Below are positions 59,015 to 59,207 of a stretch of DNA of 64,000 nucleotides, in pieces (position 1 is the stretch's first letter; every line of letters starts with the position of its first letter). The DNA comes from Bacteroidia bacterium (lineage in GTDB: Bacteria > Bacteroidota > Bacteroidia > CAIKAF01): assembly GCA_030427255.1 (NCBI GenBank), contig JAUHWY010000014.1, positions 10,463 to 74,462 of the forward strand, given 5' to 3'. The notes beneath the pieces were generated by a model. The model saw only the letters and a program-made list of their open reading frames with translations, was not told the DNA's origin and made no database searches. The position numbers and the translations under genes are program-made.

Positions 59015-59207
59015 GCAACAATCAACAGGGAAGCAACGCTTCATGTGCTAAGGGACAGTTATGCGAGGCATTTGCCTGAGCCGGGTGCCGATTTGCGGTA
59101 CATTCAAGAGTTGTTGGGGGCACAAGAGCTCACGCACGACAGAGATTTACACCCATGTCATTAGGCTCGCTTTGGAGCAAATTCGTAGTCCATTTGATGA
59201 ACTTTAG
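59015..59207 (+). pseudogene. C-terminal remnant of a tyrosine recombinase (XerD/integron-integrase superfamily)
   Basis: My translation: [35 protein letters not shown], +1 shift in G5 (59116-59120), [28 protein letters not shown]. It retains HxxR, LGH and the catalytic Tyr. An in-frame TAA lies at 59012 and nothing upstream is recognisable. Confidence 0.9.

Follow-up and report, generated by a model that had tools for sequence, protein, structure and literature searches.

A dead tyrosine-recombinase tail and attI-like site at the head of a co-oriented cassette array in a Bacteroidia genome, with further copies in the genome and two congeners

A recombinase remnant ahead of a cassette array

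We analyzed a stretch of 64,000 nucleotides (nt) from a Bacteroidia bacterium (assembly GCA_030427255.1, contig JAUHWY010000014.1, positions 10,463 to 74,462; hereafter the window), in which the 3' end of a tyrosine-recombinase gene is followed by an attI-like site and an AT-rich cassette array. The window lies on contig C35 of a 57-contig metagenome-assembled genome (MAG), labeled G000, for which CheckM-type values give 99.6% completeness and 0.41% contamination; G001, G004, G005 and G006 denote congeners. An earlier note on this DNA had described a recombinase remnant that is truncated at its 5' end, retains box II (HxxR, LGH and Tyr), carries a +1 shift in a run of five G (G5) and substitutions at conserved sites, and heads the array in its own orientation. 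This description held.

The remnant reads through 35 codons in frame 1 as far as the G5 run and, after a +1 shift, through 28 more codons to a stop at 59205-59207. Box II was confirmed as HVLR, LLGH (with one G removed) and IYTHV, and the repaired 63 amino acids (aa) matched PF00589, the Pfam tyrosine-recombinase model, at positions 128-168 of 172 (E 1.2e-11). They also matched TIGR02249 at positions 253-315 of 315 (E 3.2e-19, 69 bits), which was the top NCBIfam match, with XerD second at 65 bits. Comparison with full-length relatives bore out the substitutions LRD for LRH and ARHLP for ATHLL. The extra G behind the frameshift is unique to the window copy; i.e., paralogues and full-length genes carry one G fewer. 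A 211-nt Logan unitig from an independent assembly of runs X1 and X2, the runs best containing the window, probably a single data set filed twice and possibly derived from the sample that yielded the window, is identical to 58936-59146 with zero differences in these contig-level data, indicating that the G5 run is not peculiar to the window's assembly.

The 5' truncation was also corroborated. Continuation of the gene upstream of 59015 is absent in every frame: an in-frame TAA (59012-59014) lies directly 5' of the remnant, and the missing part is replaced by a hairpin and a GC-rich repeat, beyond which an NAD-dependent epimerase gene ends (stop at 58767). The GC content changes from 56% to 36% around 59200. 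The box I Arg and the Lys hairpin fall in the absent part of the gene. Because approximately 300 N-terminal codons, including these residues, are gone and the remaining frame is shifted, the remnant is a non-functional pseudogene fragment that is unable to make a recombinase.

Directly after the stop, the sequence continues into the attI-like site. Its motif CTTATAAGTAAGTT places the G 104 nt beyond the stop, and contigs from metagenomes part from one another at 59313/59314. Four attC-like sites follow 3' of the stop (Table 1), confirming that the remnant heads the array in the same orientation.

Table 1. Features at the remnant and in the array, with positions in the window
Feature	Position	Strand	Description
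155-nt GC-rich hairpin repeat ("struct")	58806..58962	+	left part of every full module copy; dispersed family
Perfect 15-bp hairpin ("hp", REP-like)	58977..59010	no strand	abuts the remnant; DNA fold -17.5 kcal/mol, z = -6.6
Recombinase-gene 3' end, dead, 63 codons	59015..59207	+	box II H-x-x-R, LLGH, catalytic Tyr, RSPFDEL end
G5 run with +1 frameshift	59116..59120	+	one G extra in alignment to paralogues and full-length genes
attI-like site, type A	59208..59313	+	crossover GTT 59311-59313; homology of the type-A copies ends there
AT-rich cassette array	59314..64000	+	attC-like sites 59900-60032, 60842-60978, 61861-61994, 63582-63716
Shorter fragment, last 16 codons of a type-B tail + attI	60971..61125	+	joined to the preceding attC between G and TTAGCAAC, at the Val codon of YTHV

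An insertion-less IntI-like family in Bacteroidia

The earlier note had compared the tail with a XerD-like clade of Bacteroidota rather than with proteobacterial IntI, and had pointed out that the IntI-specific insertion would lie in the missing part of the gene. Full-length homologues were examined. When the IntI model was run against 61 related genomes, no protein exceeded its family cut-off; roughly half of these genomes have open frames of 350-440 aa that match the model in two pieces (positions ~2-179 and 238-315). The proteins of this family are 350-420 aa long, and a full-length homologue from the same genus is present in G006 as an intact open frame of 381 codons (375 aa from the first Met). 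Aligned with VchIntIA (2a3v), the G006-type homologue matches over residues 108-275 versus 11-178 and 298-373 versus 243-318, with a gap of 22 aa versus 64 aa between the two segments. When aligned together with 11 canonical IntI from that phylum, family members are missing blocks of 27 and 14 aa. The IntI-specific insertion was absent from each full-length relative examined.

The remnant shares 57-70% identity with full-length family members and approximately 50% with canonical IntI of the same phylum. Against the genome's own Xer proteins (C17 and C48), 18-28 of its 63 residues agree, compared with 36-43 against the family. The C-terminal pattern of the family, ..IYTHV followed by 8 aa and [KR]SPFD.L, is also found in the remnant, and the end [KR]SP[FLV]D.L occurs at equal spacing from the Tyr in both the family and canonical IntI, though not in Xer proteins. 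In a quick maximum-likelihood tree with two Xer outgroups only, the tail nested inside the family clade (Shimodaira-Hasegawa-like approximate likelihood ratio test 91) and canonical IntI formed a separate clade (100). On these comparisons, the remnant is assigned to an insertion-less IntI-like family of Bacteroidia and not to canonical IntI or XerC/D. That is, the placement of its relatives in a Bacteroidota clade was upheld, whereas the term "XerD-like" undersells the remnant, as the SPFD.L tail is common to IntI and missing from the genome's own Xer and the top match is TIGR02249.

Full-length members score below the NCBIfam cut-offs for both neighboring families: 202-216 versus 220 bits for XerA, and 197-203 versus 265 bits, in two pieces, for IntI. 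They carry approximately 100 extra N-terminal residues and PF13495 (SAM_4 core-binding domain), and the secondary structure of their N-terminal domain, which is unassigned, runs in the order beta-beta-alpha-beta-beta-alpha-beta. Their best match among solved structures is XerA (4a8e, 5hxy), and Foldseek with a full-length model retrieved recombinase cores only. The family comprises at least 8000 protein clusters at E <= 1e-30 and, where named, is labeled "integrase/recombinase XerD" by the Joint Genome Institute. Canonical IntI exceeded the cut-off in 114 of 401 genomes sampled from the phylum, 113 of them outside the class Bacteroidia and one within it. The definition of integrons rests on IntI with its extra domain, and the prevailing view is that Bacteroidia hardly contain any (PMC9024848; 10.1101/2024.07.02.601686). 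Bacteroidota are likewise taken to lack integrons in recent work. [quoted passage not shown]

We examined the surroundings of 79 full-length family genes from named genomes (Flavobacterium psychrophilum DSM 3660, F. limicola DSM 15094, F. saccharophilum DSM 1811, Algoriphagus spp. and Pseudopedobacter) and many MAGs. Every full-length gene inspected has TATAAAyrAGTTA approximately 100 nt after the stop, and a search for TA[TA]A..AGTT recovered an attI-like site after the stop at 63 of the 79 loci, with a modal distance of 97-104 nt. The attC-like sites were sought with a profile obtained by iterated nhmmer and built solely from the sites of G000. Co-oriented matches of ~130 nt were found downstream of 24 of the 38 genes with at least 1.5 kb of downstream sequence; none was found in the opposite orientation at the family loci, and none in the 6 kb upstream of any of the 79 genes. 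The closest homologues are thus not recombinases unconnected with such arrays, as the earlier note had considered. The note had also called co-orientation the exception, and it is indeed a minority layout among known integrons (Treponema; PMC3607928, PMC4889954). Within this family it is the rule, and the remnant heads its array in the orientation that is normal for the family.

A repeated module with a fixed breakpoint

The remnant proved to be real but not the product of a single decay in situ, as it is one copy of a module that occurs at least ten times in G000 and is also present in two congeners. The full 63-codon tail is found in G000 on C35 (the window), C42 (twice), C5 and C44. Shorter pieces on C39 (twice), on C42 (twice) and within the window array bring the total to at least ten. 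In the five full copies, the 155-nt repeat and the hairpin precede a tail that starts from the same base (..GTGGGTTAAGC/..TTAAAC..), and similarity ends exactly at the attI GTT, followed by differing cassettes. Depth over the module in metagenome unitigs was 4-7x that of the unique first cassette. At least 11 module copies with the same breakpoint are present in G005, several of them within a 1.57-Mb contig, and at least two in G004. A single breakpoint is therefore common to at least 18 copies across three species (G000, G004 and G005), always behind the same GC-rich hairpin repeats. G001 differs: its G006-type gene, which precedes attI and an attC, was truncated independently, at another breakpoint, and lacks the hairpin repeats, indicating that ordinary decay also happens in the genus.

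No intact gene of the family was found in G000, G004 or G005. Every copy inspected was broken or, where no stop was visible, substituted at conserved or catalytic positions. In nearly all copies, the stops, frameshifts or insertions lie at different places, and insertions of ~50 nt occur in G005 copies; the module copies therefore evolve as non-coding DNA. For the same reason, we rejected the 48-aa open reading frame (ORF) at 59061-59207 as a true small gene.

Orthologous loci allowed the history of the module to be followed. The C44 unit of G000 and the L048 unit of G005 are 89.6% identical, and their flanks are 89.5% identical; this equality places the truncation before the species split. 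Similarity between the two loci stops at the attI crossover (..ATAAATGAG followed by TT.. versus ..GAG followed by CT..) and resumes at TTAGCCCAAGCAG, directly behind two different attC-like sites. Between these points lie 2.7 kb in G000 versus an unrelated 0.8 kb in G005. A replacement bounded exactly by both recombination points is what insertion at attI predicts, which implies recombinase activity after the death of the local gene. We infer that different cassettes entered at attI after truncation, probably through a recombinase acting in trans. In a second orthologous pair (G000 C5 and G005 L051), the downstream content is also unrelated. The G005 cassette at L048:1586-2381 holds two short overlapping ORFs in a layout suggestive of a toxin-antitoxin pair.

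Presence and absence of the module also differ between the genomes. At the locus corresponding to the window, G005 has the epimerase gene and the 155-nt repeat without hairpin, tail or array, and at another locus G005 has a unit with a low-GC array of ~8 kb where C22 of G000 has satellites only. The epimerase gene of G004 is 98% identical, and its contig ends in the hairpin repeat, so that the window locus is not comparable there. In a tree of the units, the type-A copies of G000 (83-85% alike) cluster, and several G005 copies cluster likewise. This partial clustering by genome indicates that copying of the module continued after the truncation.

The copies fall into two types, A and B, with within-type identities of 0.8-0.97. 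The two types are 72% alike through box II and near random after the YTHV codons and in attI, the switch lying at the Val codon (GTC/GTT) of YTHV. The same Val codon joins tail fragments to attC in the window (..GCAAACCG joined to TTAGCAACC..) and at C39:~830, and the tail fragment at C42:62752 is joined to other DNA at this codon. Two readings fit these observations: the right halves of A and B were exchanged by recombination at that GTT, or the types stem from two source genes and the breakpoint was produced or spread secondarily. In the second case, the route would be either site-specific cutting beside the hairpin or homologous exchange through the repeats.

Two repeats make up the invariant left portion of the module. 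The 155-nt repeat has 25 near-full copies in G000 on both strands (BLAST), and a second window copy lies at 38771-38919 on the minus strand; its stems show compensatory changes, and its apical loop AAGGAGCTTCCTGTGGTCGCTCTT is conserved. Many copies are followed by two direct AAATCTCTACAT repeats. The short hairpin meets the tail at ..GCTGTGGG TTAAGC.., precedes the tail in the other full copies and is found in tandem or solo copies in G005. An Rfam scan of 56000-64000 at permissive E-values returned two chance-level matches only and no family for the hairpins, and a group II intron or other known element upstream was rejected for want of an Rfam match. Tandem copies of the short hairpin CCCACGGTTTTAACCGTGGG, repeating every ~126-136 nt and accompanied by the 3' half of the 155-nt repeat, are found at G005 L049, L057 and C10:140-814, an arrangement resembling bacterial interspersed mosaic elements. 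At G000 C22:66880-67600, an intergenic satellite is made of GAATGATGAATG-type units and repeated AGTAAAGACG..hairpin units; G005 has the module and array there.

In the array itself, the inverse core of the cassettes matches the core that opens them, and the attC-like sites are uniform at ~130 nt with a conserved internal motif. These sites were defined by a home-made sequence hidden Markov model (HMM). A strict finder based on regular expressions and dynamic programming recovered one of the four window sites, and the consensus that RNAalifold derived from 13 attC-like sites aligned with MAFFT had 8 pairs only. The array runs past the end of C35. Synteny with G005 puts C39:1-1701, with three further plus-strand sites (136-1701), after this end; the downstream genes in G005 correspond to G000 C39:10215-16003, and the array thus probably continues from C35 onto C39. 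Cassette ORFs at 61140-61862 and 62022-63572 of the window include a DUF2071 protein and a 516-aa HEAT-repeat protein, and three other cassette ORFs had no Pfam match. A run of six co-oriented ORFs (933, 138, 452, 179, 506 and 496 aa; 42-46% GC) at C39:1787-10081 comes immediately behind the attC-like site at C39:1569-1701 and may represent a large multi-gene cassette.

Origin of the module and its relation to known systems

The explanation that we favor, with a probability of about 0.78, is that a dead family tail and its attI head a co-oriented array as part of a module that was copied after the truncation. A family recombinase gene would have lost its 5' part, with its last 63 codons staying attached to the downstream attI-type site. 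The module of GC-rich hairpin repeat, short hairpin, truncated tail and attI would then have been copied around the genome. Its orphaned attI sites presumably stayed usable, and cassettes may have been inserted in trans by a family recombinase whose gene has since been lost or resides on a mobile element. Copies could have been relocated by homologous recombination via the dispersed hairpin repeats, by recombinase cleavage of GTT sites within the gene's 3' end, or by both.

Several alternatives were weighed against this explanation. If a resident integrase gene had simply lost its 5' part at this locus, the other copies would be irrelevant to its origin. The truncated copy in G001, with its different breakpoint and without hairpin repeats, provides a precedent for such decay, as do the intI pseudogenes near 15 of 279 clusters of attC sites lacking integrases (CALIN; PMC4889954). 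However, the same breakpoint and upstream hairpin in at least 18 copies of three species, the G005 orthologous locus that has the hairpin repeat without tail or array, and the grouping of the window copy with other G000 copies at 83-85% identity make ordinary decay in situ very improbable. Alternatively, the breakpoint may have arisen repeatedly, through a family recombinase that cleaves its own gene at a secondary site and links this site to a REP-like hairpin serving as a folded substrate; in that case types A and B would represent separate events, with the module acting as a portable attI head. The contrast between the two types on either side of YTHV is as expected of two genes, the Val-codon GTT junctions recur, the hairpin is very stable, and the breakpoint lies beside GTTAAGC/GTTAAAC, which fits GTTRRRY. 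Yet the in-frame TAA falls within that 7-mer, which probably comes from the hairpin and not from the gene; type B reads GCTAAAC and has no GTT, the hairpin is unlike the ~130-nt attC-like sites, and the distal junction that such cutting predicts was not found. We regard repeated cutting as unlikely.

The tail might also have been kept as functional DNA, i.e., as recombinase-binding sites or the promoter of an extended attI, rather than as a neutral leftover. Most partial copies retain at least the last 16 codons and attI, and the attI of the family is only ~100 nt from the stop, both of which would suit such a role. Against it, G005 copies tolerate stops, frameshifts and ~50-nt insertions, the copy at C42:22305-22417 is attI alone, and the divergence between orthologous copies equals that of their flanks, so that we consider this quite improbable. 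That the junction and its multiplicity arose as an artefact of a chimeric MAG contig or mis-binning is scarcely credible. The 57 contigs of the MAG, the arrays and repeats at contig ends and the sharp GC drop at the junction would be in keeping with it, but independent unitigs identical to the window tile 58936-59700, a depth over the module that is expected of several real copies, the same architecture inside the 1.57-Mb G005 contig and the low contamination of the MAG speak for a genuine structure.

Other observations weigh against the copied-module explanation itself. Every genome involved is a MAG or draft. The source of the recombinase that would serve in trans was not found, and no close intact G006-type gene was present in the contigs of four metagenome runs. 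Homologous exchange between paralogous units could in principle account for the cassette replacement. No target-site duplication, clean ends or defined right end was seen in the comparison of G005 L057 with G000 C22. Because the similarity of types A and B stops at YTHV, they may derive from two different genes, and simple common descent would then account less readily for the shared breakpoint. Finally, the attC-like sites are known from the home-made HMM, and in single-strand folding just one of the four sites in the window outperforms shuffled sequences.

A further reading, which we put forward tentatively as possible rather than probable, is that in this Flavobacteriales lineage the truncated tail with its attI acts as an independent integration head that multiplies. 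The family recombinase would cut GTT sites of its own gene, at the YTHV Val codon and beside the breakpoint. The portable heads so released would come to lie behind hairpin repeats or attC sites, where they would start new arrays at many loci and be served in trans. If this were true, a genome could hold a dozen active cassette-capture sites without an integrase gene.

The locus resembles several known systems in part. As in the "inverted integrase" integrons of the Treponema denticola type, the family gene is transcribed towards the cassettes, the insertion site heads the array, the cassettes are delimited by imperfectly palindromic sites whose cores read AAC...GTT and new cassettes enter beside the insertion site (PMC3607928, PMC4889954). 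Unlike those integrons, the family lacks the additional domain of IntI, has ~100 extra N-terminal residues, and has its attI 3' of the gene at a fixed distance of ~100 nt and uniform attC-like sites of ~130 nt. As cited in PMC4889954, Messier and Roy (2001) held the additional domain to be necessary for IntI activity. By description, a CALIN with an intI pseudogene, a category that is defined through IntegronFinder's attC and IntI_Cterm models and asks for at least two attC sites and a remnant within 10 kb, also fits: a cluster of cassette sites without a working integrase and with a recognizable remnant alongside. Here, however, the remnant derives from an insertion-less family, remnant and attI form a repeated module with a fixed breakpoint (at least ten per genome, in three species), and at least one orthologous head gained different cassettes after truncation. 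A pseudogene beside a cassette cluster is of a familiar kind; the fixed-breakpoint multi-copy module in three species and the apparent later gain of cassettes by orphan heads are new.

Recombination at attG secondary sites and delta-attI cassettes of mobile integrons (PMC12901181) likewise involve junctions between G and TT in non-canonical sequence and attI pieces carried into arrays, whereas the sites here lie in the most conserved codons of the recombinase gene itself (T-H-V) and the system is not IntI-based. In core fold and sequence, the family resembles archaeal XerA among the XerC/XerD relatives, but Xer proteins lack the SPFD.L end and a following attI with arrays, and the genome's own C17 and C48 are poorer matches to the tail. 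Like repeats of the enterobacterial repetitive intergenic consensus (ERIC) and repetitive extragenic palindromic (REP) types, the 155-nt repeat and the short hairpin are dispersed, structured, GC-rich and intergenic; unlike these, they make up the invariant left side of a module with an integration site.

The remnant ties an AT-rich array to a very large family, labeled "XerD", that is excluded by the standard definitions of integrons. Its members stand at the head of arrays in numerous named strains, among them Flavobacterium, Algoriphagus and other Bacteroidia; because cultured carriers exist, the recombination chemistry of the family is directly testable. The history of the module suggests that an integration head can persist after its integrase is lost, be copied in a truncated state and go on acquiring cassettes, which bears on the origin of cassette clusters without an integrase.
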